DNA of 64,000 nt, taken from NCBI GenBank assembly GCA_964388955.1, contig CAYMCO010000015.1, positions 21,266 through 85,265 of the forward strand. Direction: 5' to 3'. The DNA comes from an uncultured Anaerolineaceae bacterium. Lineage in GTDB: Bacteria; Chloroflexota; Anaerolineae; Anaerolineales; E44-bin32. Numbering within the stretch: the first letter of the stretch is position 1; the number at the start of each line of letters is the position of its first letter. A program made the position numbers and the translations under genes. Shown here piece after piece: positions 14,574-34,316 of the stretch. Below the pieces are notes generated by a model that was given only the letters and a program-made list of their open reading frames with translations, was not told the DNA's origin and searched no databases.

Positions 14574-14649
14574 CTCGTCCTTCCGATCTCAGCATGGATT
14601 GCAGCCTGCGTCCGCCTGGGCGCGGCGGCCGCAGCCCGCTGCTTTTCAC

Positions 14650-15015: not shown

Positions 15016-15018
15016 GAT

Positions 15019-17211: not shown

Positions 17212-17247
17212 TGTCATACCCCGAACGTGTTATTCGAGGGGTTAATC
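17212..17247 (-). promoter_or_regulatory. conserved 36-nt intergenic motif, copy B
   Basis: The plus strand reads TGTCATACCCCGAACGTGTTATTCGAGGGGTTAATC. It lies between the CPBP gene stop (17488) and the DUF4386-like start (16929). Confidence 0.7.
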
Positions 17248-17487
17248 GGAATAGATAGGAGAAGCGATTTGCTCGTTGAACATCGCCCGCCGGTCCACGA
17301 ATTCAGGGCTGCCGGAAAGCCCGGGCCCCGTGCGCAAGAACAACGCAAGTATGAATCGACCCCACCTTCCGGGAGTCCCTGAATCCTCGTCCCATGCGTC
17401 CCCGGCCAGCAGCCGAGCGAGTGGGCTCGATCCAATTGCTCGGCACCCTACCCATTGGGGGAGAGAAAGACCGGATTGGCCCACCGC

Positions 17488-18300: not shown

Positions 18301-18498
18301 CTATTCGGACAACTCATCATATCTCCCGGACCCTCAGGGGCCATCAGTGTCAGCCGAGAATCCTCCACCCTTTGAAGCCCATGCGATTGGTGAAGCGTTC
18401 AATAGCCCTGGCCTCCTCCCATTTCTCACAGGGACGAATCAGATGCCATTGATGCTACGAAGAAGCGGGCCCGAAGGTGCGCGAGTCAGCTTGGACAT

Positions 18499-19431: not shown

Positions 19432-19476
19432 GCGGACATGCCTCCCCAAGGGTGCTCATCCATCGGTCATCGCAGG

Positions 19477-20169
19477 CTAGTATCCCGCCGCTGGAGCGGG
19501 CTGCGGGGCGAGCGGCGCGGGACTGAAGCCTCTCACGATCAGCCACACGCCCAGGAACAATTCATTCAACAACATGACAAACCCCAGATTTGGCAGGCTC
19601 ACTCCGAAGATCTCGAAGAGGGTATTGGCGAGCACGACCACGGCGCCCAGGAGCCCCCAGATGGAAATAAATCGGGGAACCAGCCTGAGTCGGAACAGCA
19701 TGCCGTAGAACAGCAGCGCCCCGCAGCCCAACGTAATCGAGACCATCTGAAACGCCCACGCGCGCTGTGCCAGCAGCGCAGCGCCGACGGTCTGGGCGGA
19801 GGGCTCAATGGCGGCTCCAAGGCCCACAGCCCCCTCGCTCACCGTCAGCAGGGCTAAGGGTGCGAGATCGGATAGGATCTGCATGACGAACTCGACGATC
19901 CGAAAGCCGATGTATCCGAGCGCCAGGCTCTCGAATCTCCCTTTCAGCACGGGGAACATGTAAACGGCGATGCCCAAGTATGCAAAGGCGTTGACGATCT
20001 CCAGCAGGGCGCCGACGACCAGCTTCGATCGATTTGCAGAAATCAGCGTGAGGTAATCCGGGGCGCTGAGGAGGGGTTCGAGGAAGACTATCGCCCCCAC
20101 CAAAAAGACGACGTTGGAAATGATAAAGAAGGAACCGACCAGCCTGGCAGTACGTCTGCCCGAATTCAT
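19477..20169 (-). CDS. DUF4386-like membrane protein
   Basis: MNSGRRTARLVGSFFIISNVVFLVGAIVFLEPLL...ALLFYGMLFRLRLVPRFISIWGLLGA...NELFLGVWLIVRGF. Confidence 0.7.
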   Translation of the reverse strand: MNSGRRTARLVGSFFIISNVVFLVGAIVFLEPLLSAPDYLTLISANRSKLVVGALLEIVNAFAYLGIAVYMFPVLKGRFESLALGYIGFRIVEFVMQILSDLAPLALLTVSEGAVGLGAAIEPSAQTVGAALLAQRAWAFQMVSITLGCGALLFYGMLFRLRLVPRFISIWGLLGAVVVLANTLFEIFGVSLPNLGFVMLLNELFLGVWLIVRGFSPAPLAPQPAPAAGY

Positions 20170-20240
20170 CTCACATCCTTTCTCCCAAGTTCTACTGCGG
20201 CAAGATCGACTGTCTTCAGCATAGCAAGCGGGGATACCGC

Positions 20241-20277
20241 TGTCATACCCCGAAGGTAGTATTCGTGGGGGTTAAAG
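20241..20277 (-). promoter_or_regulatory. conserved intergenic motif, copy C (37 nt, one inserted base)
   Basis: The plus strand reads TGTCATACCCCGAAGGTAGTATTCGTGGGGGTTAAAG. It lies 72 nt upstream of the start at 20169. Confidence 0.7.
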
Positions 20278-20333
20278 CGGCCAGCAACCAATGCTCAGAA
20301 AGTGGGGATCAGGAGCCCAAGCATTCGCACTGT

Positions 20334-20454
20334 GTAGGCCGGGTTTGCTACCCGGCGAACCTGTGGGGGCGCCCACAAGGGGTGCCCCTACAACTTTCCG
20401 GAATGTCCTTTACGTCACGTGAGCGTGGACGCGCCCTGGCATTCCCCGGCCTAC
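20334..20454. repeat. REP/BIME-like structured GC-rich element
   Basis: Perfect 10-bp terminal inverted repeat GTAGGCCGGG (20334-20343) / CCCGGCCTAC (20445-20454). It encloses the hairpins CCGGGT-TTGCT-ACCCGG (20339-20355) and GGGGCGCCC-ACAAG-GGGTGCCCC (20366-20388). The core recurs at 20948..21001. Confidence 0.55.
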
Positions 20455-20472
20455 GCAAGGGGTCAAGCGCGT

Positions 20473-20838
20473 CTAGACAACCCACCGCCATGCATACCAG
20501 ATTGTTAGCGCGTTGAACACAAAGCTCACGCCGATGAGAAAGTTGTCATACGCGCCCTTGTACGGGAGACCAAAGAGGTTGAAGACGACGACTAGGACCG
20601 CCACGACGATGTTCACCCAGCGTATAGCGGGATAGACCAAAGTCAAAGCCAGCACGCCCATGACGATCGGGATGAGCATCATTGCCGCAATGAACAGCCA
20701 CATGCCGGGGGAAGCCTGGGAGCCCATGATCATTCCCGGTTCGGCATCGCCGGCGAATAGGCGCAGCACGTCACCCCAAAGATAGGTCAGCATCGTGGCG
20801 AACCAAAATCCTGAGATGATGATCCTTGTATCTACCAT
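20473..20838 (-). CDS. small 4-TM membrane protein (DUF6326-like), paralog of 14650..15015
   Basis: MVDTRIIISGFWFATMLTYLWGDVLRLFAGD...NLFGLPYKGAYDNFLIGVSFVFNALTIWYAWRWVV. GGAAAGGAAGGTG lies upstream of ATG 20838. Confidence 0.7.
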   Translation of the reverse strand: MVDTRIIISGFWFATMLTYLWGDVLRLFAGDAEPGMIMGSQASPGMWLFIAAMMLIPIVMGVLALTLVYPAIRWVNIVVAVLVVVFNLFGLPYKGAYDNFLIGVSFVFNALTIWYAWRWVV

Positions 20839-20947
20839 GGCTTGCACCTTCCTTTCCGAATGGCTGGTGGGCCGGCCCGAAGAACGTGAATCGGAGGAGT
20901 CTGAGCGGCGTCAGGCACATGCCCATGGATTCTGAACAGATTCCCTC

Positions 20948-21001
20948 GGGCGCCCACAAGGGACGCCCCTATCTCTGCCGCTCACCAATCTTTCCGGGAT
21001 G
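20948..21001. repeat. second, partial copy of the REP-like core
   Basis: GGGCGCCCACAAGGGACGCCCCTAT ... CTTTCCGGGATG compares with GGGGCGCCCACAAGGGGTGCCCCTAC..CTTTCCGGAATG at 20366-20405. Both are in the same orientation, one on each side of gene 20473..20838. Confidence 0.5.
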
Positions 21002-21202
21002 GCGGTGCAGACGCCCCGGCGGGGTGTCTCTTCAGGTGCGCCCTTGGCTTTCAGGCGCTCGTCGGCCCAGCAGATCATCCCGCGCATAAGACCGCGGGGG
21101 CAAATCACGAATTGCCCTACGAGGCGCGGAAATCGTTCCGGCCAGCATGAAGGAGTGTCTGGGGGGAGGATCGCTCTCTGCAGCCTCTCCGCCTCCCGAT
21201 CA

Positions 21203-22171
21203 TTAGCCCACCGTGAGGACCACCGCCCCTATCTTCCGCCCGGATTCGACATACCTGTGGGCCTCGTCGGCCTGTTCGAGGGGAAAGGACCGATCAACGA
21301 CCGATTTCAGTTCTCCCGCCTCCATGAGCTCTTTGAGGAATATCAGCTCTTCGGTTTTCACTTCCAAGAGCCCGATAATCATCCTCTGGCTGGCCCTGCG
21401 CCGGTACCATAGAATCTGCAGGAGCCTTGGGAGACCAAAGGTTGTGAAGAGATAGTATCCGGACTCCGCCAGCGATCTCCTGCTGCGTGAGATTGCGGTC
21501 TTGCCCACGGTGTCCAGGATCACGTCGTAGGTCTGCCCATTTCGGGTGAAATCCTCTCTAGTATAGTCAATGACCTCATCCGCTCCCAAGGATTTCACGA
21601 ACTCCGCTTTGGGGCCGCTGCACACGCCGGTCACCTCGGCGCCCAAATACTTGGCGAGCTGTACCGCCGCACTGCCCACCCCACCGGATGCGCCGAAGAT
21701 CAGGGCTTTTTGCCCATTCCGGATATTTGCCTTTCTCAAGAAATGCAAAGCCGTCAATGCCCCTTGAAGGACGCTGGCGGCTTCTTCATAACTCACGTTG
21801 GCCGGCTTCAGTGCGGCAGCAGACTCGGGCAGACATGCGTACTCGGCATAGGCGCCGTACCTCATCCCAGGATAGCCAAATATCGGATCCCCCACCGTGA
21901 ACCGTCCCACATCCTCTCCAACGGCCTCCACCTCCCCCGCCAGCTCTGTCCCGAGGATGGTCGCTCTTGGTCTGATCAAGCCCGAACCTATTCGGCTGAG
22001 CAGCCACATCCCGGGAGGCGCCGTGGAACTGCGCATCCAGCAATCGAATTTCGTCGCCGAGGTGGCATACACTCTGACAAGTAGTTCATCTGGCTTCGGG
22101 ATCGGTTTGTCCACCTCCTTGAGCTGCAGGACTTCCGGAGGGCCGTATCGTGTGTACGCAATCGCCTTCAT
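21203..22171 (-). CDS. MDR-family NAD(P)H quinone oxidoreductase
   Basis: [25 protein letters not shown]...[36 protein letters not shown] lies upstream of ATG 22171. Confidence 0.85.
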   Translation of the reverse strand: MKAIAYTRYGPPEVLQLKEVDKPIPKPDELLVRVYATSATKFDCWMRSSTAPPGMWLLSRIGSGLIRPRATILGTELAGEVEAVGEDVGRFTVGDPIFGYPGMRYGAYAEYACLPESAAALKPANVSYEEAASVLQGALTALHFLRKANIRNGQKALIFGASGGVGSAAVQLAKYLGAEVTGVCSGPKAEFVKSLGADEVIDYTREDFTRNGQTYDVILDTVGKTAISRSRRSLAESGYYLFTTFGLPRLLQILWYRRRASQRMIIGLLEVKTEELIFLKELMEAGELKSVVDRSFPLEQADEAHRYVESGRKIGAVVLTVG

Positions 22172-22249
22172 GAGGATTCCTCGCTGCTTCGGTTCCATCT
22201 ACTCATCCCGGGCCTCGGAGGAGTACGCATACCCGAGAAGGGATCCAGG

Positions 22250-22618
22250 TCAATTGAACCCCTTTACGATCAGCCACAGCGCGACCACCAACTCGAATGG
22301 CGCATAAGGGAGGCCCAGCACCATGACCGCGGTGAAATCTCGCTTGAACAGCACGAACAGTACGGGGATCGTCAACAGACCGACGGCGATGAGCCCCCAG
22401 AGGGAGAGCGCCGGTGGAATTGCCCTGGATATATAGAGCAGGTAATACCACAATATCGCGCCCAGGCAGAAGAACCACATATGCATGTCATAGGCCACTC
22501 GATCCACACCATGGCACAAGAAATCCCCCATCGCGTGATGGAACGATGATGCCGGCGCTCCCGCCGCCACGAATTCTTGGCTCAACGGGATGAGCGCATA
22601 GGTGCCGATCTTGCTCAC
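22250..22618 (-). pseudogene. DUF4386-like gene, C-terminal half only
   Basis: (V)SKIGTYALIPLSQEFVAAGAPASSFHHAMGDFLCHGVDR...WFFCLGAILWYYLLYISRAIPPALSLWGL... aligns to residues from about 110 to the end of the 16243..16929 protein. The N-terminal half is missing. The preceding gene's stop (22620) is 1 nt away. Confidence 0.6.
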
Positions 22619-22619
22619 T

Positions 22620-23279
22620 CTAACTCAGGCTGAATGGAGGATAGCGGTCGGTGACCAGTAGAACAACATAAGCCTGCACCCGCAGCCACCAGCGGCCCAC
22701 CCCAACAACGAAATCGAAAAGGGATCTCGGATACCGCCCGGTCAGCAGAATGGCAAACCAAGCCAGGATCACCACGAAGACGCCGGCTACGCTGAGAAAC
22801 GCCAGCACGATGTAGTGCGGGATCGCGAGCAGCCATTTGAACAGCGGGTACCAGCGGTTGAGGTCCGCTTCTACGTTGGGGTAATCGATCTCCAGATGCA
22901 CAGACTGTTCTTCGACGGTGGAGGGGTATAGGTCTGTGAGCAGCGCCCCGTAGGCGGCCACCCGGGCGCCGAAGCGAGCCAGCTCGCGAGAAAAGTCGAA
23001 CCACCAGCGAGGATATCGATATCGAAAGATGATCATCAATGCCGTGGCGGTGGCGAGGCCGCTCACCAGGCCGCCAGCCGTCTCCCGGGTGGTCCTCAGC
23101 ACCTCGCCAGCCTGATTGACATAGATGGTGTTGGTGACCGTCTCACCGGCCCCTGAAACGAGCGCGAGGATGATGCCGATCGGTATGATCCAGAGAATGC
23201 GCAAGAAAGTCGTCAGCCGATCGAGCCTTTCGGGATAATCGATTTGCAGTCGAGCAGGATAGTCCGCGGGATTGTTCAC
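22620..23279 (-). CDS. DUF4389-like membrane protein (two tandem repeats)
   Basis: GTG 23279 with GGAGGTG upstream. NNPADYPARLQIDYPERLDRLTTFLRILWIIPIGIIL...RYPRWWFDF is followed by a second repeat, VHLEIDYPNVEADLNRWYPLFKWLLAIPHYIVLAFL...GRYPRSLFDFVVGVGRWWLRVQAYVVLLVTDRYPPFSL. Confidence 0.65.
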   Translation of the reverse strand: MNNPADYPARLQIDYPERLDRLTTFLRILWIIPIGIILALVSGAGETVTNTIYVNQAGEVLRTTRETAGGLVSGLATATALMIIFRYRYPRWWFDFSRELARFGARVAAYGALLTDLYPSTVEEQSVHLEIDYPNVEADLNRWYPLFKWLLAIPHYIVLAFLSVAGVFVVILAWFAILLTGRYPRSLFDFVVGVGRWWLRVQAYVVLLVTDRYPPFSLS

Positions 23280-23495
23280 AGCACACCTCCATGGGATATG
23301 CCCCGTTACAATACCGGCGCCCAGCATCCGGAGGGCGATTCCGACCTCCGGCGGCAGACGGCGCCGCTGCACTCCGATTAGGATAGATCGTAAATGCGCA
23401 TGTCCCCTCCATTCTGGCATGCGTTTCAGATCGCCCGGATCCGCAGCCGATTGGATTTCTCTTCTAAGAGGAGTTTATGTCCGAGGGGGTGTGGG

Positions 23496-23531
23496 TGTCA
23501 TACCCCAAAGGTGGTATTCGGGGGGTTAAAA
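23496..23531 (-). promoter_or_regulatory. conserved 36-nt intergenic motif, copy D
   Basis: The plus strand reads TGTCATACCCCAAAGGTGGTATTCGGGGGGTTAAAA. It starts 18 nt downstream of the stop of the LuxR-type gene 23549..26338. Confidence 0.7.
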
Positions 23532-23548
23532 GGCGCAGTCACTCGTGA

Positions 23549-26338
23549 TCAGGTCGCGGGCAATAGCCCGAGGGATCTGGCCTCCGCGACCGCCTGGGTG
23601 CGGTTGTTGACCGCGAGCTTGCCGTAGATGTTGCGGGTGTGAACCTTTACCGTATTATGGGAGAGAAACAATCTCCTGGCGATCTCGCGATTCGTCAGCC
23701 CGCGGGCGATGAGCTCGAGCACCTCCAGCTCGCGATCGCTCAATGGCTCAACCAACCGTGATTGATCGACCCCGGTCCTCCCTAGAGCGGCTTCAGTAGA
23801 GACATCAGGTGCAAACGCGGCAAGTAGGGTGCGAACGTACGCCTCCAGCCTGAGGGCATCCGGTCGTATCTTTCCCAACAATGATTTCATCGGCGCACCC
23901 TCGCCGACAAATGCGTGCGCATATCCCTCCGGTTCCGCAAGATCGAGAGCCCGTCCCAGAGAGATGAGCGCTCGAGGGAGCTTGCCCTGGGCTTGAAGCG
24001 CGAGCGCCTGAACCACCAGGATTTCGATCATGCTGCCGATTCTATTGCCATCCTCCGCAGCGTTCAGGAGGCGATCCAGCATTCCAAGTGTATCGCCAAT
24101 CAAACCCTCCGCGTGGGCTCTCTCATGCTCGGCGATCAATATCCTGGCCAGGGTGAGGTGCTCGAACTCGCACAAGTAGCTGGGATCATCGTGAACGGAC
24201 AGGCCCGCCTGCCGCGCCCAAAGCAGGCCTTCGTCCAACTTGCCCTGTCTCAACTTCGTCCGGGCGACCAGCGCCGCCAGGGGGCGTATGTCGGGAATAG
24301 GATGCCGATAATATAGGCGTTGTGCCTCCTCCAGAATCCGCCCAACAGCCTCCAAGTTTCCAGCGGACTCCATCAATCGAGCCCGAGCGAGCACCCAGTG
24401 TCGATACCAGGGGGGGAACGCCGGCAGCTCGCCTAGTTCCTCGCTATTCTCCAGATGCCGTCTGGCCGCTTCCAGATCACCCTGCTCATGGCACAGCTCA
24501 CTCAACCCCAGATGCACGACCGCCATTTCCGGCAGAACGGGTTCCCCCCGCTCCGCAGCCAAATCCAGGAGCTGTATATAGGTTTGTTTCGCTTCGTTGA
24601 GACGGCCCTGGGCGATCATGATGTCCGCCAAATACGAGGTGAAGCTGATGACGAAAGGGAGCTTTCCTAGAAGCCGCATATAGGATATGGCATCGGAGAT
24701 CGCCCGGTGGGCCGCCTCCAAATCCCCGGTCGACCAGTATGCGAACCCCGGGAGGATGGCTGAGAGACTGCGCTCGAAATAGTCATCGTCAGGCAGGAGG
24801 TCGAGCGCCCGTTGAGCGTAGGACACAGTGCCGGCGACGTCTCCGAGCGCCTGAGTGAGATAGGCGCGTGCATTGGCTATGGATCCCGACAGTGATCGCC
24901 GTTCCTGCTCGCTCAGGGCTGCCGTGTGGCCCGATGGGGGATCGGATTGGTGATTTCTGGCTGCTGTTGAGTCCAACCATCGTTCGGCATCCCGCAGACG
25001 GAGGTCGGCGCCCTCCAGATCGCCGAAATCTATCAATGACCAGCCATAGCCCGCGCTGAGTAGAGGCCTGGAACGAACAACTTCGTCTGGAATGGCCTCC
25101 ACCCATCGCAGCCAGTAGAGTCCCCCGTAGTTCATGTGCATTTCACGCCAGGCTGTTTCGGCCAAGCAGGCTGCTCGCTCATGATCCTTGGCTCTCAGAG
25201 CATGCTCTATCGCCTGCTCGGTGAACCTATTGGCCTCATACCACTCACTGGCCCTCAAGTGCAGGGTTGGTTGTTGTTGGGGTTGGGCTTGGCGCAAGCG
25301 TTGGCGCAATAGATCGGCGAAGAGATGATGATAGCGATACCAACGCCGCTCGTTGTCCAGGGGAACGACAAACAGATTCACATGCTCGAGATATTCAAGG
25401 ATCTCCTGACCATTGTTCTGGCCGGTCAGGGCATCGCATAGTGACCCGTTCAGCCTCTCCAGAATCGCAGTCTGGAGCAGAAAGGCTTGAATGCCTTCCG
25501 ATTGTTGATGCAGCACTTCTTCCAGCAAATAATCGAGCACGAGCCGGTGGCTGCCGGTAAACGATTTGATCAGTTCGCTCTTGTCTTCCTTGCCACGCAG
25601 TGAGATGGCAGCCAATTGCAGCCCCGCGATCCAGCCCTCCGTGCGTCTCTCGAGTGCGGCGATGTCTTCGTCCAGCAGATCCAACCCCATGACCTGGTTT
25701 AGGAATGCGGCAGCTTCGGCTGTGGTGAAGCGGAGATCCCCTGCGCGCAGCTCCGTCAACTGGTCAGCCACCCGCAGCTTTGCGATCGGCAACTCCGGGT
25801 CCATGCGTGTCAGGATGACGATGTGCATCTGTGGCGGCAAGTGTTCAAGGAAATAGGTGAGCGCCGCAATCACATCGGGCGCCTCGATGTGATGGAAATC
25901 GTCCATGACCACGAGGGCCCGATTCTCGAAGCCCTCGAACTCGTTGATCAGAGCGGTGAGCACGGCCTCGGCCGGGGGAGGGTGCGGCGATTGGAGCATA
26001 TCCAGCAGACGGCCTTTCTCGGGCGATTCAAGGCCCTTGACCCTGAGGAGTGCCGTGATCAGGTACGTCAGGAATCTGGCCGGATCATTGTCCGCCTCGT
26101 CCAGCGAATACCAGGCAATTTGAAGGCGGTTCGGGTCTGAATCTCGGGAGTGGGCCCGGAGCATCTCCACCCATTCGCTGATGACCGAAGTCTTGCCGAA
26201 GCCGGCGGGGGCGGAGATAAGGATCAATCTACGATGCAATCCATCGTTCAAACGCTCGATCAGACGCGGCCGAGCAACGCGTTTGGATCGAGCGGGCGGG
26301 ACATACAGCTTCGTGTACAGGATCTCTTCGTCGGGCAC
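23549..26338 (-). CDS. MalT-like STAND ATPase / LuxR-family transcriptional regulator
   Basis: 929 aa. N-terminal P-loop LILISAPAGFGKT, a long helical/TPR-like middle region, and a C-terminal LuxR HTH LSDRELEVLELIARGLTNREIARRLFLSHNTVKVHTRNIYGKLAVNNRTQAV. Confidence 0.85.
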   Translation of the reverse strand: MPDEEILYTKLYVPPARSKRVARPRLIERLNDGLHRRLILISAPAGFGKTSVISEWVEMLRAHSRDSDPNRLQIAWYSLDEADNDPARFLTYLITALLRVKGLESPEKGRLLDMLQSPHPPPAEAVLTALINEFEGFENRALVVMDDFHHIEAPDVIAALTYFLEHLPPQMHIVILTRMDPELPIAKLRVADQLTELRAGDLRFTTAEAAAFLNQVMGLDLLDEDIAALERRTEGWIAGLQLAAISLRGKEDKSELIKSFTGSHRLVLDYLLEEVLHQQSEGIQAFLLQTAILERLNGSLCDALTGQNNGQEILEYLEHVNLFVVPLDNERRWYRYHHLFADLLRQRLRQAQPQQQPTLHLRASEWYEANRFTEQAIEHALRAKDHERAACLAETAWREMHMNYGGLYWLRWVEAIPDEVVRSRPLLSAGYGWSLIDFGDLEGADLRLRDAERWLDSTAARNHQSDPPSGHTAALSEQERRSLSGSIANARAYLTQALGDVAGTVSYAQRALDLLPDDDYFERSLSAILPGFAYWSTGDLEAAHRAISDAISYMRLLGKLPFVISFTSYLADIMIAQGRLNEAKQTYIQLLDLAAERGEPVLPEMAVVHLGLSELCHEQGDLEAARRHLENSEELGELPAFPPWYRHWVLARARLMESAGNLEAVGRILEEAQRLYYRHPIPDIRPLAALVARTKLRQGKLDEGLLWARQAGLSVHDDPSYLCEFEHLTLARILIAEHERAHAEGLIGDTLGMLDRLLNAAEDGNRIGSMIEILVVQALALQAQGKLPRALISLGRALDLAEPEGYAHAFVGEGAPMKSLLGKIRPDALRLEAYVRTLLAAFAPDVSTEAALGRTGVDQSRLVEPLSDRELEVLELIARGLTNREIARRLFLSHNTVKVHTRNIYGKLAVNNRTQAVAEARSLGLLPAT

Positions 26339-26629
26339 GCGCCCCCCTGGTGCCCAGTATATATCCCGGGGAGCGGGTGTTCAAGGCGTCATAACTCCAG
26401 CAATTCATGAAAACCGTTATCTGCTCTCCACACACAGGATGAACTGGAGGGCGTGAGCCCCACGGTCGCCCGAAACGCCAGGAGCATCACGGGTGGACGC
26501 TGCCGCGGTTGTGCATATCAAAGATCGCGATCTGATCATCGGCCGCAAGCGGGGCTTTGAATTCATTGGACAAGCGGATCAGATCCAATTCTCATACAAT
26601 AGTCCATCGAGACGACTGAACATGGGCGA

Positions 26630-27277
26630 ATGAAAGACTGTGACATGGAGATAGAGCCGTTTGTTGAAGGCCTGGTTGCGGGCTACGGGATCGCGATCCC
26701 GGTGGGGGCGGTCGCGGTGTTGATCGTCAATACGAGCATTCAATGCGGCTTTCGGGTCGGATTCTTTGCTGGCGCCGGCGCGGCGACCGCCGATTTCATC
26801 TACGCCATCCTGGCAGGCCTCGCCGGGGCCGCGCTGGAGCGGTTCCTTCACCCCGCCGCGGTGGCCCTGCACTTCACGAGCGGGATCGTGATCATCCTGC
26901 TGGCGGCATCCATCTTCCGCCGGGGTTTGGCGCGGCCAGGTGACGAGGAAGAGTCTGCACTGATCTGCGGACCGATGCGCATGTACTTGCAGTTCCTTGG
27001 CATCACAATCATCAACCCGCTCACGGTCGTGTACTTCACCGCCCTGATCCTTGGAAGCGATCCAAGGGAAGCGCTCAGCCCCTCAGCGGTTGGTCTCTTT
27101 GTGTTGGGAGTGGGCGTCGCCTCCCTTTCCTGGCAAACGTTTCTTGCAGGTCTGGGAGGGCTTGCCCGGGATCGACTGCCCCGTAGCTTCCGCCGGCTCA
27201 CCGCCCTGGCCGGGGGTCTCTTGGTGGCGGTGCTTGGGTTGAGAGTCCTGGTTTCGGCGATGCTTGAATACACATAG
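26630..27277 (+). CDS. LysE/RhtB-family amino-acid exporter
   Basis: Hydrophobic, about 210 aa. FVEGLVAGYGIAIPVGAVAVLIVNTSIQCGFRVGFFAGAGAATADFIYAILA is typical of the LysE/ArgO family. The start is ATG 26630 or 26645. Confidence 0.65.
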   Translation: MKDCDMEIEPFVEGLVAGYGIAIPVGAVAVLIVNTSIQCGFRVGFFAGAGAATADFIYAILAGLAGAALERFLHPAAVALHFTSGIVIILLAASIFRRGLARPGDEEESALICGPMRMYLQFLGITIINPLTVVYFTALILGSDPREALSPSAVGLFVLGVGVASLSWQTFLAGLGGLARDRLPRSFRRLTALAGGLLVAVLGLRVLVSAMLEYT

Positions 27278-27348
27278 CCCGTCCCGCAAGGGTCGTTTGG
27301 AGCAGCTACTCTGGGGGCGGTGTGGATCCGAATCCGGACGGAGTGATC

Positions 27349-27627
27349 CTAATCGATCCGAATCGCAAGAATGGTGGTGTCATCGGACAAGGGTGTTCCG
27401 CCTGCAAAACTATCCAATCGGTGCCTGATCTCTCGAATCGTATCGGCAGGGGATGCCAGATAGAGCCCCTCTACTATGTCTTGCAGGCGCCGCATTCCGA
27501 ACATCTCCTCCGCCGGGTTGGTCGCCCCTACAAGCCCGTCGGTGTACATCAAGAGCAGGTCACCCGATCCCATCTGTATCGACCCTTCAAGACTCTTGGG
27601 GTTCAACCTCCTCACCCCTGGCAACAT
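27349..27627 (-). pseudogene. PP2C/SpoIIE-type phosphatase, C-terminal fragment only
   Basis: GDLLLMYTDGLVGATNPAEEMFGMRRL...GTPLSDDTTILAIRI are the last conserved blocks of a SpoIIE/PPM domain. No N-terminal part is present. The 5' end overlaps the preceding gene. Confidence 0.6.
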
Positions 27628-27850
27628 GGATCACCGATATCAGCGGCAGTCCGAGAGAGTACAGCCGGCGCAGCATCCCGTGGAGGGCGGCCTGATCCAA
27701 TGCCCCGGCCAAGGTTGTCACGGGGGGGCCATCCCCCTCGCGCTCAAAGCTGATCACCATCCCCTCCACCCATTCCGCTCCGCGCAGGTCGATCTCCCCA
27801 GGCACTCTGATCTCGTAGTTGGCGGGCTGATCCAGGGAAAGCTTCTTCAT
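27587..27850 (-). CDS. small conserved protein (87 aa), unknown function
   Basis: MKKLSLDQPANYEIRVPGEIDLRGAEWVEGMVISFEREGDGPPVTTLAGALDQAALHGMLRRLYSLGLPLISV. ATG 27850 is 14 nt after the QOR stop. The DQAALHG.L..L..LGLPL.SV pattern recurs in small proteins of GC-rich bacteria, as far as I remember. Confidence 0.55.
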   Translation of the reverse strand: MKKLSLDQPANYEIRVPGEIDLRGAEWVEGMVISFEREGDGPPVTTLAGALDQAALHGMLRRLYSLGLPLISVIHVARGEEVEPQES

Positions 27851-27863
27851 GGTCCCTTTCAAT

Positions 27864-28814
27864 TCACATCTCGATGATGAGTTTGCCTTGAGTGTGCCCC
27901 CCTGCAAGTTGGTGCAGAGCGGATGGGAGCTCAGCGAGAGTATAGCACCGGCCAATCCACGGTCGGATTCTACCCCTCTCAAGGAGTTCTTTGATGATTC
28001 CGAGGTCCCCCTTGGTCGGCCGCTTTGGCTGCAGCGGCACCATCCTTCTGCCGGCACGCATGGACCGGATCCTTCCCACCACGGCAAGGGCTGGAGTGAA
28101 CTCGGTCGTGATAAAGACGCCATGGGGCCTGAGGGCGCAGCGGCATTCGGCGAACGTGCGCTTCGCGGCGACATCAAAAATGAGGTCATAGCGCCCGCCG
28201 TCTTGGGTGAAGTCGTCTTGTGTGTAATCGAGGGCGTGGTCCGCGCCCAACTCCTGCACCATTTCGAGATTGTCAGTGCTGCACACACCGGTCACCTCGG
28301 CCCCGTAGGATTTCGCAATCTGCACTGCGAAGCTCCCCACGCCACCGGATGCCCCGTTGATCAGGGCCTTCTGCCCCTCCCTGATCGCCCCCACGTCCCG
28401 CAGCGCGTGCAGGGCTGTGGAGGCTGCCGCCCCAACAGCCGCAGCCGCCTCGAAGGTCAAACCCCCCGGTTTGAGCTGGATTTCATCCCTTTTGACACAC
28501 GCATATTCGGCAAAGCACCCGTTGCCGGTGGACCCGAAAACCTCATCTCCCGGCTGGAAATCGGTTACACAGGGCCCAGCAGCCTCGACCCGCCCGGCCA
28601 AGTCTATCCCCAGCACCTCGTGCTTCGGCTTGAAGAAACCGGCCATAATACGCGTGATAAATGGTGACCCGGTGAGGAAGTGCCAGTCGAGCCAGTTGAC
28701 GGAAGCGGCATGGACTTTGACCAGGACCTCATTGACATCGACGGAGGGTACATCGATTTCCTGGAGCCGGAGCCCTTCGGGGGGGCCATACCTATCGTAG
28801 ACCATTGCCTTCAT
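27864..28814 (-). CDS. MDR-family NAD(P)H quinone oxidoreductase
   Basis: MKAMVYDRYGPPEGLRLQEIDVPS...[30 protein letters not shown]. It is the fourth paralog. Confidence 0.85.
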   Translation of the reverse strand: MKAMVYDRYGPPEGLRLQEIDVPSVDVNEVLVKVHAASVNWLDWHFLTGSPFITRIMAGFFKPKHEVLGIDLAGRVEAAGPCVTDFQPGDEVFGSTGNGCFAEYACVKRDEIQLKPGGLTFEAAAAVGAAASTALHALRDVGAIREGQKALINGASGGVGSFAVQIAKSYGAEVTGVCSTDNLEMVQELGADHALDYTQDDFTQDGGRYDLIFDVAAKRTFAECRCALRPHGVFITTEFTPALAVVGRIRSMRAGRRMVPLQPKRPTKGDLGIIKELLERGRIRPWIGRCYTLAELPSALHQLAGGHTQGKLIIEM

Positions 28815-28865
28815 GGCGTTGCCGTGCCTTTCCCATTGGAGCCCTGCTTCAGCCTCAATCGCTCT

Positions 28866-29546
28866 TCAGACGGCACTCTCCCGGATACCGAAGATCACGA
28901 GGTAGAAGCCCAAAATCAGTTCGAAAGCGACCATGGGCAACATCATGACCATGTTGGCGTTCTCTGGCAGATCGACGACCAATGCCAAGACAGAACCCAG
29001 AGCGAACACGACAGCACTGGCTACCCCGTAGATGGCCAGGGCGACGGGGATTACCCGGCCCTTGAGGAACAAGTAGTTGTTGAACAGGCTACCAATTGAC
29101 AGGAAGACGAAGGAAGTCCAGACAGCCAACGTCGACGCAGCGATGAGAATCTGGCCAAGAATCTCGACATCCCCCATCCCGGCCGCGGACGATGTGATGG
29201 CTGAACGGCCCAATGTCAGCACCAGGTAGTCCGGAATCTTCGCCCCCGCCTGGAGCACAACCTCCGCGATCCGCCATCCCAAGGCAAGGAGGGCTAAGTA
29301 ATGGTTGATGGGTCTCAGGACGACGTACAGCGAAAACGCCAGGGACATGACCGCGACCATGGCCAAGAAATCGATCGAGACGGCCGTCCGATATTGGACT
29401 GCGTTGGCTGCCACGAGGCCGAGAGTGCTGGGGATATCCGCTGCGTTGATAAGCTTACCCTTGAGCGCCAAGTTGGCCACAAGAAAAGCCAACACAGTCG
29501 ATACATAGAGCGCACCAGTAATCCTGGAAACTCGCTTCCGGTCCAT
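28866..29546 (-). CDS. DUF4386-like membrane protein
   Basis: MDRKRVSRITGALYVSTVLAFLVANLAL...FLSIGSLFNNYLFLKGRVIPVALAIYGV...FELILGFYLVIFGI. AGGAGG lies upstream of ATG 29546. Confidence 0.7.
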   Translation of the reverse strand: MDRKRVSRITGALYVSTVLAFLVANLALKGKLINAADIPSTLGLVAANAVQYRTAVSIDFLAMVAVMSLAFSLYVVLRPINHYLALLALGWRIAEVVLQAGAKIPDYLVLTLGRSAITSSAAGMGDVEILGQILIAASTLAVWTSFVFLSIGSLFNNYLFLKGRVIPVALAIYGVASAVVFALGSVLALVVDLPENANMVMMLPMVAFELILGFYLVIFGIRESAV

Positions 29547-29623
29547 TCCTGCCTCCTGAACCGCGTTTCAACGCCTGCAAATTTCGATTGGCCATATTGA
29601 GCATATCCGGAGAGTGGGGCCAG

Positions 29624-29659
29624 TGTCATACCTCCAAATCCTGCCCAACATGGGCGCAA
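29624..29659 (-). promoter_or_regulatory. degenerate half-copy of the intergenic motif (copy F)
   Basis: TGTCATACCTCCAAATCCTGCCC... Only the TGTCATACC end is conserved. It sits 78 nt upstream of the start at 29546, the same spacing as copies A and C. Confidence 0.35.
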
Positions 29660-29688
29660 ACGAAATCTCAAATATGGCGATCCCGCGT

Positions 29689-30183
29689 TTAGATCTCCGG
29701 TCGTCGGAAGTAAGCCCGTCTTCCGATCAACAGAACCCCCGCTGCGATCACGCCCAGGAACAGGAAGAGATATGTCTGGAGGCAAGGGCCTGGCCAGTTC
29801 AGAATCGCAAGCTCATACGTCCCTTGAATGATCGCGTTGGCGATGAGCATGATCCCCCAGAAGAGCCCCAGCGCCCAAGCAAATCGCCTTCCCCGTCTGA
29901 GCTCGATGGCAAGGTAAATCCCCAGGATGCCGATCCACAGCTCTTCCCACAGCGGTTTGAGCATGCTCAGATTGAAGTATCCGAGCGCCGCCGGTTCGAT
30001 GGTCCTGACATCGAACTGAGATCCGGCGTACTTCAGCCCGTGCTCGATGATGACGGTCCCTCCACTCAGCAAGAGCAGGGGCACGGTCCATAGGAGAAAT
30101 AGGATCGAAAGGGCCATTATGACAATCCATACTAATCTGGAAGTTCCCTTCCCCGCGGACATTGAGCTTCTCCTCATCTCCAT
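29689..30183 (-). CDS. membrane protein, unknown function
   Basis: Only the C-terminal ~165 aa of track ORF 29689..30438 look protein-like (RLVWIVIMALSILFLLWTVPLLLLSGG...). The start is ATG 30183, 30177 or 30162. The 5' part of the track ORF runs across the motif and the small ORF. Confidence 0.5.
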   Translation of the reverse strand: MEMRRSSMSAGKGTSRLVWIVIMALSILFLLWTVPLLLLSGGTVIIEHGLKYAGSQFDVRTIEPAALGYFNLSMLKPLWEELWIGILGIYLAIELRRGRRFAWALGLFWGIMLIANAIIQGTYELAILNWPGPCLQTYLFLFLGVIAAGVLLIGRRAYFRRPEI

Positions 30184-30221
30184 CCCTTGGCATTTGATTC
30201 TGCCCCCACGATTTTCGAAGC

Positions 30222-30338
30222 CTACTCCCTCTTCTCCCGATAGACCGAGACGAACCAGAGCAGGCCGATGCCGGTGAAGAACGCTCCCAGCCCAGCAAAT
30301 ACATGAAAAAAGGCCGCGATGGCTTCGGATGCATCCAT
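30222..30338 (-). CDS. 38-aa single-TM peptide (below the ORF-track cutoff)
   Basis: AAGGAGGAG, 4 nt spacer, then ATG 30338. The product is MDASEAIAAFFHVFAGLGAFFTGIGLLWFVSVYREKRE followed by a stop at 30224-30222. It has one hydrophobic helix and a basic tail. Confidence 0.45.
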   Translation of the reverse strand: MDASEAIAAFFHVFAGLGAFFTGIGLLWFVSVYREKRE

Positions 30339-30432
30339 GTTCTCCTCCTTCTCGTCGCGAGTTCTCGAAACGCGCGATGGGCCCCAAACTGCGCCCACCC
30401 TTCAAATGCAGTCTAAGCACGACTAGACCGCG

Positions 30433-30468
30433 TGTCATACCCCGAAAGGACTATTCAAAGGGTTAATT
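30433..30468 (-). promoter_or_regulatory. conserved 36-nt intergenic motif, copy E
   Basis: The plus strand reads TGTCATACCCCGAAAGGACTATTCAAAGGGTTAATT. It lies 60 nt downstream of the stop of the LuxR-type gene 30528..33290 and 95 nt upstream of the 38-aa ORF. Confidence 0.7.
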
Positions 30469-30527
30469 CAATCCAATTCGAAGGGAAAAGAGCGAGATAT
30501 TGAAAATCGAAGAATGGCGGCCAGCGA

Positions 30528-33290
30528 TCAAGTGAAGGGCAGGATACCCAGCGCCCTTGCCTTGGAGATTGCCTGCGTGCGGTTGTTCACATCGAGTTTG
30601 CCGTAGATATTCCGCGTGTGGGCCTTGACGGTGTTGACGGATAGAAAGAGGCGGGCGGCGATCTGCCGATTGGTCAAGCCCTCGGAGATGTGCTGCAACA
30701 CATCGATCTCGCGCTCGGTCAACTGCTCAACGAGATGGGACTCTTGGGCTTTATGCGTTGACGGAGCCGCAGCCTCCGGTTCAGGGACCGGGAACGCACC
30801 CAGCAGCCGTTGCGCGTATCCCCCCGCCGCCTCTCGAGCCGCGGCCTCATAGAGCAGGCGGGCCATCGGAGGTCCCTCATCCAGGAAGATACGCACGAAA
30901 CCAAGCGGTTCGGCGAGGGCAAGCCCCCTCCCCAGCGAATCCAACGCCCGGTTCGTATCTCCCCAGGCTTGCAGGTCAAGCGCCTGGAGAATCAAGATTT
31001 CGATCACCCTCGATTTCCGCCCGGCCGTTTCCGCACCCTCGAGCAACGCTGCTAGAAGCCTCAAGGATTCTTCCATCCGTCCCAGGCGCATGAGCACTCG
31101 GGAGAGCGTGATGTATTCCACCTCGTGCAAATAGGTCGGCTGCCCATCGACCTTAAGCCCACGCTCCATCACCCAGTAGGATGCCGCGTCCAGCCTACCC
31201 TGAGCAAGCCAAGTGCGGGCCTGCCAGGCGGCCATCTGCGTTGGGATCCATGCAGGCATTTCGCTGTCCCGGGCCATTCTCTCAACCTTTCGCAACACGT
31301 TCTCGAGGCCGGCAAGATCCCCCATGGAGAACAGGACCCGGGCCAGGCACAAGTTGCTCCATCCGATCATGGCTACATCCCGACCCCTCTCGGTCAGACC
31401 CACCCCTTTCTCAGCCCGGTCAATGGCCTTGCCCAACTGATCCATCTCCGCGAGCACTTCCCCCCAGATTGCCAACAAGTAGCCAGCCGCGACCGTCTCC
31501 GATCTCCCAAATTCGCGCGCGGACCCTATCTGCCGCTCACATAGATCGATGATCTGCCTCAGCTCTCCCCGCTGCCTGAGCGTCTCGGCAAGCCGCAGAT
31601 GGGCGAGCATGAGCAGGTAGATATCACCTGTCGCTTCACTCGCTACCACGGTATCCCATCGGGCTTTGTAAGCGGCCTGCATGTCGCCCTGGTTTGCATG
31701 GGCGTCTCCCATGGCAATCAAGGCCGCGCTGCGCCAAAAGAGGTCCGTCTCGGGCAGATTGCCCAGCGCCCTGTGCGCCGACTCGAGGGTGGCAGACACA
31801 TCCCCCGCGTAGGACGCCAGAAACGCTCGGATCGTCGCCGCTCTCCCCACCAGCCTCGATCGATCCGCGACTGCGGGGCCATATTGCCCTGCGTGGGCCT
31901 CAGCGCTTTGATCGGGGTTGGTGAGGAGGATCTCGTCCAGGGAGGCTAGGCTTTCAGCCGCTGCCGCCAATTGGCCGCCGGTGAATAGATTCCAGGCTTG
32001 CAGCAGACATAGCTGCGGATTGGCGGCCACCAGATCGGCCGGCAGCGCTGCCAACCAGCGCCGGAGCTTCATATGCTCACCGCCCTGGTACATGACGTCG
32101 AATTGCGTTTCGATCATGGCCGCTGCGCGCTCATAATCCCTGCCGCGCAACGCATGCTCGATGGCCGGATCAATGAATCCGTTTTCCGCATACCATAGGC
32201 TGGCCAAGCGATGCAGGCCGGGTACTTGATCCGGATGCGACTGGCCCAAACGCTGTCGCAAGAAATCCGCGAAGAGCGGATGATACCGGTACCATCGTCT
32301 TTGGGCATCCAGGGGAAGGAGAAACAGGTTGCGCCTCTCCAGGATCTGCAGTGTCGAAGTTCCAACGGCTTCGCCCACGAGCGCGTCGCACAAGGGCCCT
32401 GTCAGGCGGTCGAGAATGGCGGTCTTTATCAGGAATCGCTGGATCGACTCTGATTGCTTTTCCAGGACCTCCTCAACGAGATAGTCGAGTACGAAGCGAT
32501 GGCTCCCAGAGAAGGCTTCGATGAAATCGCCTCTATCTTCCAGCCCCTGCATCGAAAGGGCGGCCAACTGTAGGCCAGCGATCCAGCCTTCGGTGCGCGC
32601 TTCCAGGGCCTCGATGTTCTTCTCCGAGAGTCCGAGCCCCATCACCTGGTTGAGAAACTCCGCCGACTCTGCGAGCGTGAAGCGCAGATCCGATGCTCGC
32701 AACTCAGCGAGCTGATCCTGGGCCCGCAGGCGGGCCAAGGGAAGATTCGGATCCACTCGGGTGACGAGCGCCAAATGCACGCTTGGAGGCATGTGCTCAA
32801 GTGTGAAGAGCAAGGCATCATCAACCGCGGAAGATTCGACGACATGGTAGTCATCGAGCACCAGCACCATCCTGCCGGGTGTGGCAGCGAAGGCGTTGAC
32901 CAGCGCGGTCAGCACGTCCTCGTACGGGGGCGCCTGAGGAGAACGGAGCATGCCAAGGATCCGTTCCTCCGTCTTCCCTTCAAGGGCCCCGAGCCGGCTG
33001 AGGGCGACGATCATGTAGGTCAGGAACCGCGTCGGATCGTTGTCCCCTTCGTCCAGCGAGACCCAGGCGACTTGGCCCCTGTTGGGGCTTTCACTGGCCC
33101 CAGCCGCGCCCACGTCCGCCACCCATTTGCTGATCAGTGTCGTCTTTCCAAAACCCGCCGGAGCCGAAATCAGGCTCATCCTGCGGCTCAGGCCCCTGTT
33201 CAACTGTTCTATTAGCCGCGGCCGCGAGACGAGATTCGCCCGCGCAGGGGGAATAAATAGCTTCGCACTGAGTATCTCTCGGGGAGACAT
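30528..33290 (-). CDS. MalT-like STAND ATPase / LuxR-family transcriptional regulator (paralog)
   Basis: 920 aa. P-loop MSLISAPAGFGKT and C-terminal HTH LTEREIDVLQHISEGLTNRQIAARLFLSVNTVKAHTRNIYGKLDVNNRTQAI. It is collinear with 23549..26338 from the first residues (KLFIPPARANLVSRPRLIEQLNRGL versus KLYVPPARSKRVARPRLIERLNDGL). Confidence 0.85.
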   Translation of the reverse strand: MSPREILSAKLFIPPARANLVSRPRLIEQLNRGLSRRMSLISAPAGFGKTTLISKWVADVGAAGASESPNRGQVAWVSLDEGDNDPTRFLTYMIVALSRLGALEGKTEERILGMLRSPQAPPYEDVLTALVNAFAATPGRMVLVLDDYHVVESSAVDDALLFTLEHMPPSVHLALVTRVDPNLPLARLRAQDQLAELRASDLRFTLAESAEFLNQVMGLGLSEKNIEALEARTEGWIAGLQLAALSMQGLEDRGDFIEAFSGSHRFVLDYLVEEVLEKQSESIQRFLIKTAILDRLTGPLCDALVGEAVGTSTLQILERRNLFLLPLDAQRRWYRYHPLFADFLRQRLGQSHPDQVPGLHRLASLWYAENGFIDPAIEHALRGRDYERAAAMIETQFDVMYQGGEHMKLRRWLAALPADLVAANPQLCLLQAWNLFTGGQLAAAAESLASLDEILLTNPDQSAEAHAGQYGPAVADRSRLVGRAATIRAFLASYAGDVSATLESAHRALGNLPETDLFWRSAALIAMGDAHANQGDMQAAYKARWDTVVASEATGDIYLLMLAHLRLAETLRQRGELRQIIDLCERQIGSAREFGRSETVAAGYLLAIWGEVLAEMDQLGKAIDRAEKGVGLTERGRDVAMIGWSNLCLARVLFSMGDLAGLENVLRKVERMARDSEMPAWIPTQMAAWQARTWLAQGRLDAASYWVMERGLKVDGQPTYLHEVEYITLSRVLMRLGRMEESLRLLAALLEGAETAGRKSRVIEILILQALDLQAWGDTNRALDSLGRGLALAEPLGFVRIFLDEGPPMARLLYEAAAREAAGGYAQRLLGAFPVPEPEAAAPSTHKAQESHLVEQLTEREIDVLQHISEGLTNRQIAARLFLSVNTVKAHTRNIYGKLDVNNRTQAISKARALGILPFT

Positions 33291-33534: not shown

Positions 33535-33563
33535 ATATGAAGATAAGTATCCGGGAGGACCCC

Positions 33564-34316
33564 ATGCAGAAGCCAGAGGCGGAAGGCGACGTGGCGGAGG
33601 TTATCTCCGAAGTTCGTCTCACGGACGACTTCCCCCGCCCCGCTGTGTCTGTCGATGTGGCGGCACTGAGCGCCCATGAGGGGCATCTTTGGGCGCTCGT
33701 GATCAAGCGGCGAAAGGCTCCGTATCGAGAATCCTGGGCGCTGCCTGGAGGTTTCATCGGGATGCAAGAGTCGCTTGACCAAGCCGCCCAGCGCCTGCTG
33801 TCCGACGAGGCTGGCTTGAAGGATGTCTACCTGGAACAGCTCTATACCTTCGGAGAACCGGATCGAGATCCGCGGGCGCGGGTCATCACCGTTGCCTACT
33901 ATGCGCTCGTCGCCTGGCGCCGCCTGCAGCATCTGCAATCCAAAGAGCAGCCCACGTTGATGAGGCTGGATGTGGAATGGTCGGGGGAGACGGGCGGCCC
34001 GGTCGATTTGCTCGATGAAGGAGGCAAACGCCAGGCGATCGCCTTCGACCACACTGATATCCTGGGCATGGCTGTGAAACGCATTCGGGGCAAGCTGGAC
34101 TACGTCCCCATCGGGTTCCAATTGCTGCCGGAGCGCTTCACCCTGCGCCAGCTTCAACAGGTCCACGAAACGATTCTGGGCAACCCGCTGAACAAGGATT
34201 CCTTTCGGCGGCGCATGCTGTCGTCCGGGCTACTCGAGGCCACCGGGGAGCGCGAGCAGGATGTTGATCACCGTCCCGCCGAGCTCTACCGCTTCACGAG
34301 ACGCTCGGCGATATAG
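33564..34316 (+). CDS. NrtR-like regulator (degenerate Nudix domain plus C-terminal winged helix)
   Basis: The Nudix box GGFIGMQESLDQAAQRLLSDEAGL has RE changed to RL and EE changed to DE. The C-terminus FDHTDILGMAVKRIRGKLDYVPIGFQLLPERFTLRQLQQVHETILGNPLNKDSFRRRMLSSGLLEATGE matches the NrtR wHTH pattern. The start is at the SD-preceded ATG 33564, not 33537. Confidence 0.75.
   Translation: MQKPEAEGDVAEVISEVRLTDDFPRPAVSVDVAALSAHEGHLWALVIKRRKAPYRESWALPGGFIGMQESLDQAAQRLLSDEAGLKDVYLEQLYTFGEPDRDPRARVITVAYYALVAWRRLQHLQSKEQPTLMRLDVEWSGETGGPVDLLDEGGKRQAIAFDHTDILGMAVKRIRGKLDYVPIGFQLLPERFTLRQLQQVHETILGNPLNKDSFRRRMLSSGLLEATGEREQDVDHRPAELYRFTRRSAI

Follow-up and report, generated by a model that had tools for sequence, protein, structure and literature searches.

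Regulator genes and promoters in the window

The window analysed here is a 64,000-nt stretch (GC ~0.59) of contig CAYMCO010000015.1 (assembly GCA_964388955.1, positions 21,266 to 85,265) from an uncultured Anaerolineaceae bacterium. It encodes two paralogous MalT-like regulators, LAL1 and LAL2, and holds five copies of a short motif, two of which lie directly behind the regulator genes. We compared these regulators, the motif and the promoters in which it lies with ~130 related loci. To our knowledge, almost nothing is known of transcriptional control in Anaerolineae. The regulator genes and the promoters are given below, the promoters with their -35 hexamer, spacer length and -10 hexamer.

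23549..26338, minus strand: LAL1, MalT-like STAND/LuxR regulator of 929 aa with AAA_16, TPR_MalT and GerE domains; recognition helix NTVKVHTRNIYGKL
30528..33290, minus strand: LAL2, MalT-like paralog of LAL1, 920 aa; recognition helix NTVKAHTRNIYGKL
13983..14041, minus strand: promoter A, ATGACA-17-TAGCAT; no adjoining LAL gene
17189..17247, minus strand: promoter B, ATGACA-17-TATGCT; no adjoining LAL gene
20218..20276, minus strand: promoter C, ATGACA-17-TATGCT; no adjoining LAL gene
23472..23531, minus strand: promoter D, boxes TTAACCCC / GAATACCAC / inverted GGGGTATGA / spacer box CACACCCCC; -35 ATGACA, 18-nt spacer, -10 TAAACT
30410..30468, minus strand: promoter E, boxes TTAACCCT / GAATAGTCC / inverted GGGGTATGA; -35 ATGACA, 17-nt spacer, -10 TAGACT; weak spacer box

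The original prediction, made from the letters of the DNA, described two collinear MalT-like paralogs with a P-loop, a helical sensor and a LuxR helix-turn-helix (HTH). Both the open reading frames (ORFs) and the domain matches agree with it and show full-length proteins. Each protein begins with a P-loop NTPase (NOD) of the AAA_16 family, with Walker A APAGFGKT and Walker B DDFH/DDYH. This is followed by a TPR_MalT sensor (PF17874; E 3.7e-59 for LAL1 and 7.6e-63 for LAL2, with nearly the whole model covered) and a C-terminal GerE/LuxR HTH (PF00196; E 4e-21 and 8e-20). Over their entire length the two proteins are 46% identical. For the N-terminal NOD, the match to the solved NOD of MalT (PDB 8bob) has an E value of 6e-54, and LAL1 shares 33% identity with E. 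coli MalT across this domain. The NCBIfam MalT equivalog NF003420 aligns over nearly its whole length and yields 404 bits for LAL1 and 463 bits for LAL2, yet its cut-off is 537. Therefore, judged by the observed domain architecture and full-length homology, LAL1 and LAL2 are true MalT-family (LAL/STAND) regulators and not MalT orthologs. The aligned recognition helices are NTVKVHTRNIYGKL in LAL1, NTVKAHTRNIYGKL in LAL2, TTIKTHIRNLYQKL in MalT and STVKVHVKHMLKKM in NarL; those of LAL1 and LAL2 are nearly identical to one another, whilst their sensor domains differ (46% identity). The sole further LuxR-type HTH in the window belongs to a 220-aa protein (54268..54930, minus strand). As its helix, DKTVRNYVTNIF, is a different one, this protein is unlikely to read the same boxes.

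The sequence GGGGTATGA occurs five times in the window, always on the minus strand, compared with 0.45 expected occurrences. The 34-nt pattern TTAACCCnnnGAATAnnnCnTTnGGGGTATGACA, with up to two mismatches allowed, gives five matches (14006-14039, 17212-17245, 20241-20274, 23496-23529 and 30433-30466) against 0 expected, and conservation is confined to this core and does not extend into the flanks. The motif first described is real but was drawn too short, the conserved element running on into a promoter with -35 and -10 hexamers. A generic promoter scan independently calls all five copies with ATGACA, a spacer of 17 or 18 nt and TAnnnT, and ATGACA matches the consensus -35 at five of six positions. 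The promoter anatomy observed is that of a four-box array in steps of ~12 bp. Boxes 1 and 2 are direct repeats (TTAACCCC, GAATAmCAC) with a period of 12 nt. Box 3 is the inverted GGGGTATGA. It is palindromic with box 2, touches or overlaps the -35 ATGACA and ends 19-20 nt before the -10, both in the window copies and in a 59-site consensus from other genomes. Box 4 is again direct and lies within the spacer between -35 and -10; its consensus in relatives is TAATACCAC and it is degenerate in the window.

From this layout we read the motif as the upstream half of a sigma-70-type promoter. Because the predicted transcription start falls downstream of the conserved block, this block is read as a DNA element and not as a leader RNA. 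A promoter of the extracytoplasmic function (ECF) sigma type, with an AAC-containing -35 and a CGT-type -10, was considered as well and is ruled out by ATGACA-17/18-TAnnnT in the five copies and the 59-site consensus alike. Motif D starts 19 nt past the stop of LAL1 and motif E 61 nt past that of LAL2, within 1 nt of the 18 and 60 nt put forward earlier. That a motif copy follows each regulator holds for D and E, but the three remaining copies, A, B and C, follow no LAL gene and stand in front of paralogous units of the same tandem array.

Motif and regulators in other genomes

A scan of 185,579 genomes, one per species, for CCCNNNNAATANNNCNTTNGGGGTATGAC returned 53 loci. Nearly all come from metagenome-assembled genomes (MAGs) of Chloroflexota (Anaerolineae, Anaerolineales, Promineifilaceae, Ardenticatenaceae), and several genomes are multi-copy. 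Complete genomes with the motif are CP070785.1, CP070639.1, NZ_OZ244997.1 and JABFGG010000001.1. The consensus of 59 aligned distinct sites is AATTAACCCnCTGAATAACACnTTCGGGGTATGACACTAATACCACCTnGCGGnTATGCT, with ATGACA, an 18-nt spacer and a -10 of TATGCT. At many loci the first gene begins ~45 nt past the motif, behind an AAGAGG ribosome-binding site, and thus there is no room for a leader RNA. The genes behind the motif across genomes encode NADPH:quinone-oxidoreductase-like enzymes (QORs), a family-less protein of 84-90 aa, condensation-like acyltransferases, Acyl_transf_3 proteins, beta-lactamase-fold hydrolases, ABC ATPases and permeases, CPBP proteases, DUF4386 and DUF6326 proteins. This diversity is what we would call a regulon-like pattern. 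No mal genes were found among the box-led genes (QOR, DUF4386/4389/6326, acyltransferase, beta-lactamase-fold, ABC, CPBP and condensation-like).

These data bear on whether the motif might instead act as RNA, that is, as a leader, riboswitch, terminator or processing hairpin after the LAL gene, by way of a stem-loop of boxes 2 and 3. The two boxes can pair (CCCCnCGAA...TTCGGGG), and transcripts that run on past the LAL gene would include the region, promoter D being so close to the LAL1 stop. However, boxes 1 and 4 are direct repeats without a pairing partner, no T-run lies behind the stem, and a scan of the whole 64-kb window with Rfam 15 at the gathering threshold gave 0 matches. Moreover, the conserved -35 and -10 lie within or downstream of the motif, in addition to the short distance to the first gene. 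We regard an RNA function as highly improbable and dropped the hairpin as a candidate, since two boxes lack a partner and the promoter hexamers fall within or after the motif.

Likewise, the five copies could be imagined as remnants of a recent segmental duplication of a ~3-kb unit, with no regulatory meaning, as paralogous units (DUF4386 plus QOR) recur every ~3 kb. Such a reading is already contradicted by the conservation of the 34-nt core without its flanks and by the presence of the same element ahead of unrelated genes in dozens of other genomes, and we find it scarcely credible.

Of 64 motif sites, 19 have a LAL homolog that ends within 350 nt upstream in the same orientation, and 8 more have one that ends 0.7-1.75 kb upstream; 5 of the 64 have too little upstream sequence to judge. 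For comparison, the chance that a random position falls in the 350 nt behind a LAL stop is ~0.5%, even in a window as rich in LAL genes as this one. At three loci (L005, L017 and L022) the LAL beside the motif is frameshifted or reduced to its HTH-coding end; the regulator copies seem to be degenerating, with the promoter kept. In an Anaerolineales MAG (L047:614-3873, minus strand) the order is motif, 84-aa protein, LAL, motif and beta-lactamase-fold gene. A regulator inside a motif-led operon would allow positive feedback; the arrangement in the window differs. One locus labelled Bacteroidales (L046) is missing the flanking AATTAA and the conservation of both spacer and -10, and was therefore treated as a probable chance match. 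Two loci labelled Zixiibacteriota (L003 and L014) and one labelled Nitrosomonadaceae (L051) carry typical Anaerolineae-type motifs and LAL genes; these contigs may be mis-binned.

For the comparison in the opposite direction, metagenomes were searched with an alignment built from ten motif-linked LALs; this gave 574 confirmed relatives, and the 80 closest of them were retained. By a strict position weight matrix (PWM), the exact window-type motif is present at 2 of these 80 loci (L089 and L092), a count that by itself would have seemed to contradict the link. The best sub-threshold PWM matches exposed variant box types. Here, the LAL gene is followed, at a median of 67 nt past its stop, by an array of the same layout built from a different box (for example AATCACCACatCAATCACCACaatGTGGTGATGccgtcTCACCACatgaacgtgTATCCT, ATCCCCACAcaaaATCCCCACAtGTGGGGAAGACAtcTCCCCACAttcagttgTATATT and AACAACACccccaAACAACACtttAGTGTCTAGACaaCAACACCgttttgctggTATACT). 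The shared layout consists of a box, a second box ~12 nt on, an inverted box that forms a palindrome with box 2 and abuts the -35, a spacer box and a -10. The variant boxes include ATCACCAC, ATCCCCAC, ACAACAC, GTCACCAC and AATCTATC, and more besides. By our own reading of the sequences, type II promoters have TGCCGT as a poor -35, and in the other non-window box types the -35 is poor as well. Where a -10-like hexamer is present (26 of 37 promoters examined), it lies 20-22 nt past box 3 in 21.

Arrays were scored with a spacing-aware measure, which replaced an automatic 7-mer repeat finder that was too noisy. A score of at least 18 was reached downstream of the LAL gene at 28 of 76 loci, compared with 1% of shuffles, and a score of at least 19 at 21 of 76 loci, compared with 0 of 380 shuffles. 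Upstream of LAL genes, 0 of 85 regions contain an array scoring at least 19. Autoregulation of the LAL through an upstream array of its own was rejected on this count, the locus L047 being the one case of a LAL in a motif-led operon. The co-occurrence of regulator and motif, suggested earlier as a matter for comparative genomics, is thus favourable from both directions (19/64 motif sites and 28/76 LAL loci).

Moreover, the recognition helices of the HTH domains sort cleanly by box type, and at least 12 co-diverged helix/box pairs are observed, as follows.

Helix NTVKVHTRNIY (window type): box AATAmCmC
Helix NT[LMV]RTHTKNIY: box ATCACCAC
Helix HTLRTHTNNIY: box ATCAACAC
Helix STVRTHTKxIY: box ATCCCCAC
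Helix DT[VI]KGHNRRI: box ACAACAC
Helix STVKVHTRNIY: box AATACCAC
Helix HTVKVHNRNIY: box ATACCTCC
Helix GTVKSHVHSI: box AATCTATC
Helix GTVKWHLHNI: box AmCCTAAC
Helix STVKWYVNAI: box ACCCACCC
Helix PTVKSHTQNI: box AATCATmC
Helix STVRSHVKSI: box ATCCCCCA

The four boxes of any one promoter change in concert. Such concerted change requires a common reader, and the LAL is the sole DNA-binding protein consistently encoded beside the arrays. On contig L051 an ACAACAC-type LAL with its own array is followed 1.4 kb on by a window-type promoter, and the coexistence of such pairs would fit orthogonal specificities.

Proposed mode of action and known systems

That the regulators control the motif-bearing units, and that the motif is their box, was the central claim of the original prediction, and its support comes from the two-way comparison of sequences. 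We put at roughly 70% the probability that LAL1 and LAL2 dock on the box arrays of five sigma-70-type promoters, most likely as MalT-like class II activators. A LAL activated by its ligand and ATP would, to judge by homology and by the multi-box sites, oligomerise as MalT does, and several HTH domains of the oligomer would dock onto the array of ~8-9-bp boxes. The oligomers would thereby occupy four boxes from about -66 to -20 relative to a predicted transcription start site (TSS), a position from which the promoter would be activated in the class II, MalT-like manner. Physical binding, oligomerisation and activation rather than repression are what we infer here. The targets would be tandem paralogous units that encode small polytopic membrane proteins (DUF4386, DUF4389, DUF6326) and NADPH:quinone-oxidoreductase-like enzymes, together with an acyltransferase/hydrolase unit. 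Given the nearly identical helices and the different sensors of LAL1 and LAL2, the two probably feed two different signals into the same set of five promoters.

Several observations weigh against this proposal. There is no LAL gene within 350 nt upstream at 40 of the 59 motif sites that could be judged, window copies A-C included, and control of these 40 in trans has to be assumed. Only ~1/3 of LALs from metagenomes reach the strict array score, and in window copies B and E the conservation of box 4 is poor. The near-consensus -35 of the type-I (window-type) promoters is unusual for activator-dependent promoters of the MalT type and, together with the spacer box, would also fit repression. Lastly, box and helix are correlated (Mantel r = 0.47, p = 2e-4), but the correlation between box and the rest of the protein is higher (r = 0.64). 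With the rest of the protein controlled, a partial correlation of 0.24 between box and helix is left (p = 0.003). Shared descent of neighbouring DNA could explain much of this co-variation, the link to the helix being only partly separable from phylogeny, and therefore we do not rest the case on the Mantel test; the concerted change of the boxes is the stronger argument.

Some of these points would equally suit some other reader of the boxes, for instance a transcription factor of another kind or a specialised sigma factor that these lineages share, with the LAL gene merely a conserved neighbour: the majority of motif sites are without an adjoining LAL gene, and box type tracks the overall phylogeny more strongly than the helix. 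However, no other DNA-binding gene is consistently linked to the arrays, the commonest neighbour encoding an 87-aa protein without an HTH and with a generic alpha+beta fold. Both promoter hexamers have the housekeeping sigma-70 form and not the ECF form, and the arrays lie strictly 3′ of LAL genes, never 5′, a synteny that we observe throughout. Moreover, the box cores resemble the sites of homologous HTH domains (MalT GGGGATGA; NarL TACYYMT, helix STVKVHVKHM). A reader other than the LAL is thus quite improbable.

Alternatively, the LALs may bind the boxes as repressors or dual regulators. Occupancy of the box at the -35 (box 3) and of the spacer box (box 4) would then keep RNA polymerase from an otherwise competent promoter until a ligand relieves or remodels the block. 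In type-I promoters the -35 (ATGACA) is good and the -10 acceptable, one box lies between -35 and -10 in all box types, and a LAL is named as a negative regulator in the title of one report (PMC9628970). By contrast, the characterised members of the MalT family with boxes over the -35 are activators (PMC7567727, PMC6099782), and in the other box types the -35 is poor (TGCCGT in type II), as expected for activator-dependent promoters. We consider repression or dual control unlikely, though a serious alternative in view of the near-consensus -35 and the spacer box, and prefer class II activation by the LALs.

The E. coli MalT box is GGGGA(T/G)GAGG, situated at -35 (quoted in PMC7567727). Its likeness to the motif was earlier put down to composition only, a view that we revise. 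We read the E. coli malP promoter directly and find two opposite-strand boxes (CTCATCCCC and CTCCTCCC) with a 13-nt period, and a proximal box, CAGGATGAGG, that ends 20 nt before the -10-like CAAACT; the same 20 nt separate GGGGTATGA from TATGCT here. Given this common distance to the -10, the common orientation relative to an upstream direct pair and the related helices, the resemblance is probably more than compositional, though sequence and detailed arrangement differ. MalT of E. coli and Klebsiella belongs to the same protein family over its full length and shares the TPR_MalT sensor, the LuxR HTH and a related helix (TTIKTHIRNLYQKL there, NTVKVHTRNIYGKL here). In both systems each promoter has several asymmetric boxes, the proximal of which is preceded by a direct pair in the opposite orientation (period 13 nt at malPp, 12 nt here), and the box core is G-rich (GGGGATGA there, GGGGTATGA here). 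In contrast to MalT promoters, where they stand ~16 nt apart, boxes 2 and 3 here abut as a palindrome, and there is an extra box in the -35/-10 spacer as well as a near-consensus -35. Furthermore, malT and malPQ are divergent, but here the regulator gene immediately precedes a target promoter and has the same orientation.

In Actinoplanes sp. SE50/110, a MalT-like LAL activates 17 promoters, defined by their TSS, in one genomic region through a palindrome (TCATCC-5nt-GGATGA) that lies over the -35, 34.4 +/- 1 nt from the TSS (PMC7567727). The window resembles this system in the palindrome over the -35, in the distance to the TSS (34.4 nt there and, by prediction, ~33 nt here) and in the gathering of many promoters in one region that also holds LAL genes, with poorly annotated, non-maltose targets. 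It differs in box sequence, phylum and targets, and the Actinoplanes site is described as a palindrome without flanking direct boxes. The evidence there comes from transcriptomes and a deletion, whilst the system here is known from sequence comparison. In Rhodococcus jostii, the P_TTMP promoter of the LAL activator TpdR carries direct repeats and short inverted repeats over the -35 (PMC6099782). A combination of direct repeats with an inverted repeat at the -35 is likewise present here, but the direct repeats of the TpdR site are 15 bp long with a 13-nt spacing, the box sequence is unrelated and the ligands are alkylpyrazines. NarL, with the consensus heptamer TACYYMT (PMC4886647), has a helix (STVKVHVKHM) close to NTVKVHTRNI, and the box core TAmCmC resembles its heptamer. 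Unlike the LALs, NarL is a response regulator controlled by phosphorylation; it reads 7-2-7 heptamer pairs and has no STAND ATPase or TPR sensor.

With about even odds, LAL1 and LAL2 represent a large, so far undescribed MalT-like subfamily in which each regulator gene has its own four-box promoter directly 3′ of it, with at least 12 apparently orthogonal co-diverged helix/box pairs and an ancestral cargo of the 87-aa protein and DUF4386. The proposed size is based on >570 relatives in one metagenome scan, from Chloroflexota and contigs of unknown taxonomy. Regulators of the MalT/LAL kind are already known; the family-wide series of co-diverging regulators and boxes is new as far as the searched literature shows, as searches on the box sequences and on DUF4386 with LuxR returned nothing relevant. 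If the subfamily is real, it would provide a natural specificity series for LuxR-type HTH domains and represent a sensory module widespread in uncultured soil and sediment bacteria. The assignment of regulators to operators offered here is testable and connects two sensors with five promoters within a single 20-kb array. The box/helix series may serve as raw material for a LuxR/GerE recognition code and for orthogonal regulator/promoter parts. Moreover, DUF4386, DUF4389, DUF6326 and the 87-aa protein would be tied to one ligand-sensing switch, which would narrow the search for their role.

Target units and associated proteins

The five promoter-led units follow one another in the same orientation (11216..30468), ~3 kb apart except for a 6.9-kb interval that contains LAL1 and a divergent LysE gene, and form tandem paralogous DUF4386/QOR cassettes in differing states of decay.

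11216..13928, minus strand: unit A, Acyl_transf_3 remnant (13365..13928), beta-lactamase-fold hydrolase (11807..12973) and DUF3237 (11216..11680)
14650..16956, minus strand: unit B, DUF4386 (16243..16956), split QOR (16001..15465 and 15498..15019) and DUF6326 protein (~14650..15015)
17303..20169, minus strand: unit C, DUF4386 (19477..20169), QOR (18499..19449) and a 229/270-aa ORF without a Pfam match
20473..23420, minus strand: unit D, DUF4389 protein (22620..23420), truncated DUF4386-like ORF (22250..22618), QOR (21203..22198) and 124-aa membrane ORF (20473..20847)
27587..30398, minus strand: unit E, 38-aa membrane ORF (30222..30338), DUF4383-like ORF (weak match), DUF4386 (28866..29546), QOR (27864..28814) and 87-aa 'C1' protein (27587..27850)

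The genes behind D and E had been described as membrane proteins followed by a DUF4386-QOR module. This was borne out, and the 87-aa gene of unit E was found in addition. In unit A, the Acyl_transf_3 ORF encodes 187 aa, compared with ~405 aa for homologs behind the same motif. Its residues 1-36 and 37-185 match segments ~600 nt apart in other loci, and it therefore seems to carry an internal deletion. The QOR of unit B (15019..16001, minus strand) is divided between two overlapping ORFs, with ADH_N in 16001..15465 and ADH_zinc_N in 15498..15019, probably owing to a frameshift, which would mean either a pseudogene or a sequencing error. In unit D, the 122-aa ORF at 22250..22618 (minus strand) clusters with DUF4386 proteins, which are 226-237 aa long elsewhere, and looks truncated. 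As a matter of speculation, the target genes hint at an envelope, redox or xenobiotic stress response.

A protein of 84-100 aa is the commonest first gene behind LAL-linked arrays (at least 37 of 111 LAL 3′ ends) and is often followed by DUF4386. The family has the signature YxIxVxGxLD...DQAALHGLLxxxxxLGLPLxSV and is represented in unit E of the window, whilst units A-D are without it.

27587..27850, minus strand: 87-aa family member, MKKLSLDQPANYEIRVPGEID...DQAALHGMLRRLYSLGLPLISV

The family comprises >2,000 clusters, all unnamed, and has no match in Pfam or NCBIfam. An AlphaFold model of the 87-aa protein (pLDDT 77.5) has a beta-beta-beta-alpha-beta topology, and the matches of a Foldseek search in the PDB were all weak (E >0.004) and of a generic ferredoxin-like, ACT or PII-like kind. 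The protein might modulate the LAL. Directly after its gene lies a 92-aa ORF (27349..27627, minus strand) that resembles a C-terminal fragment of a SpoIIE/PP2C phosphatase; a PF07228 neighbour is likewise found on the short Logan contig L134. A Nudix/NrtR-type regulator with NUDIX and NrtR winged-helix domains (33537..34316, plus strand) is divergent from LAL2, and the intergenic region between the two contains an AT-rich, promoter-like stretch.

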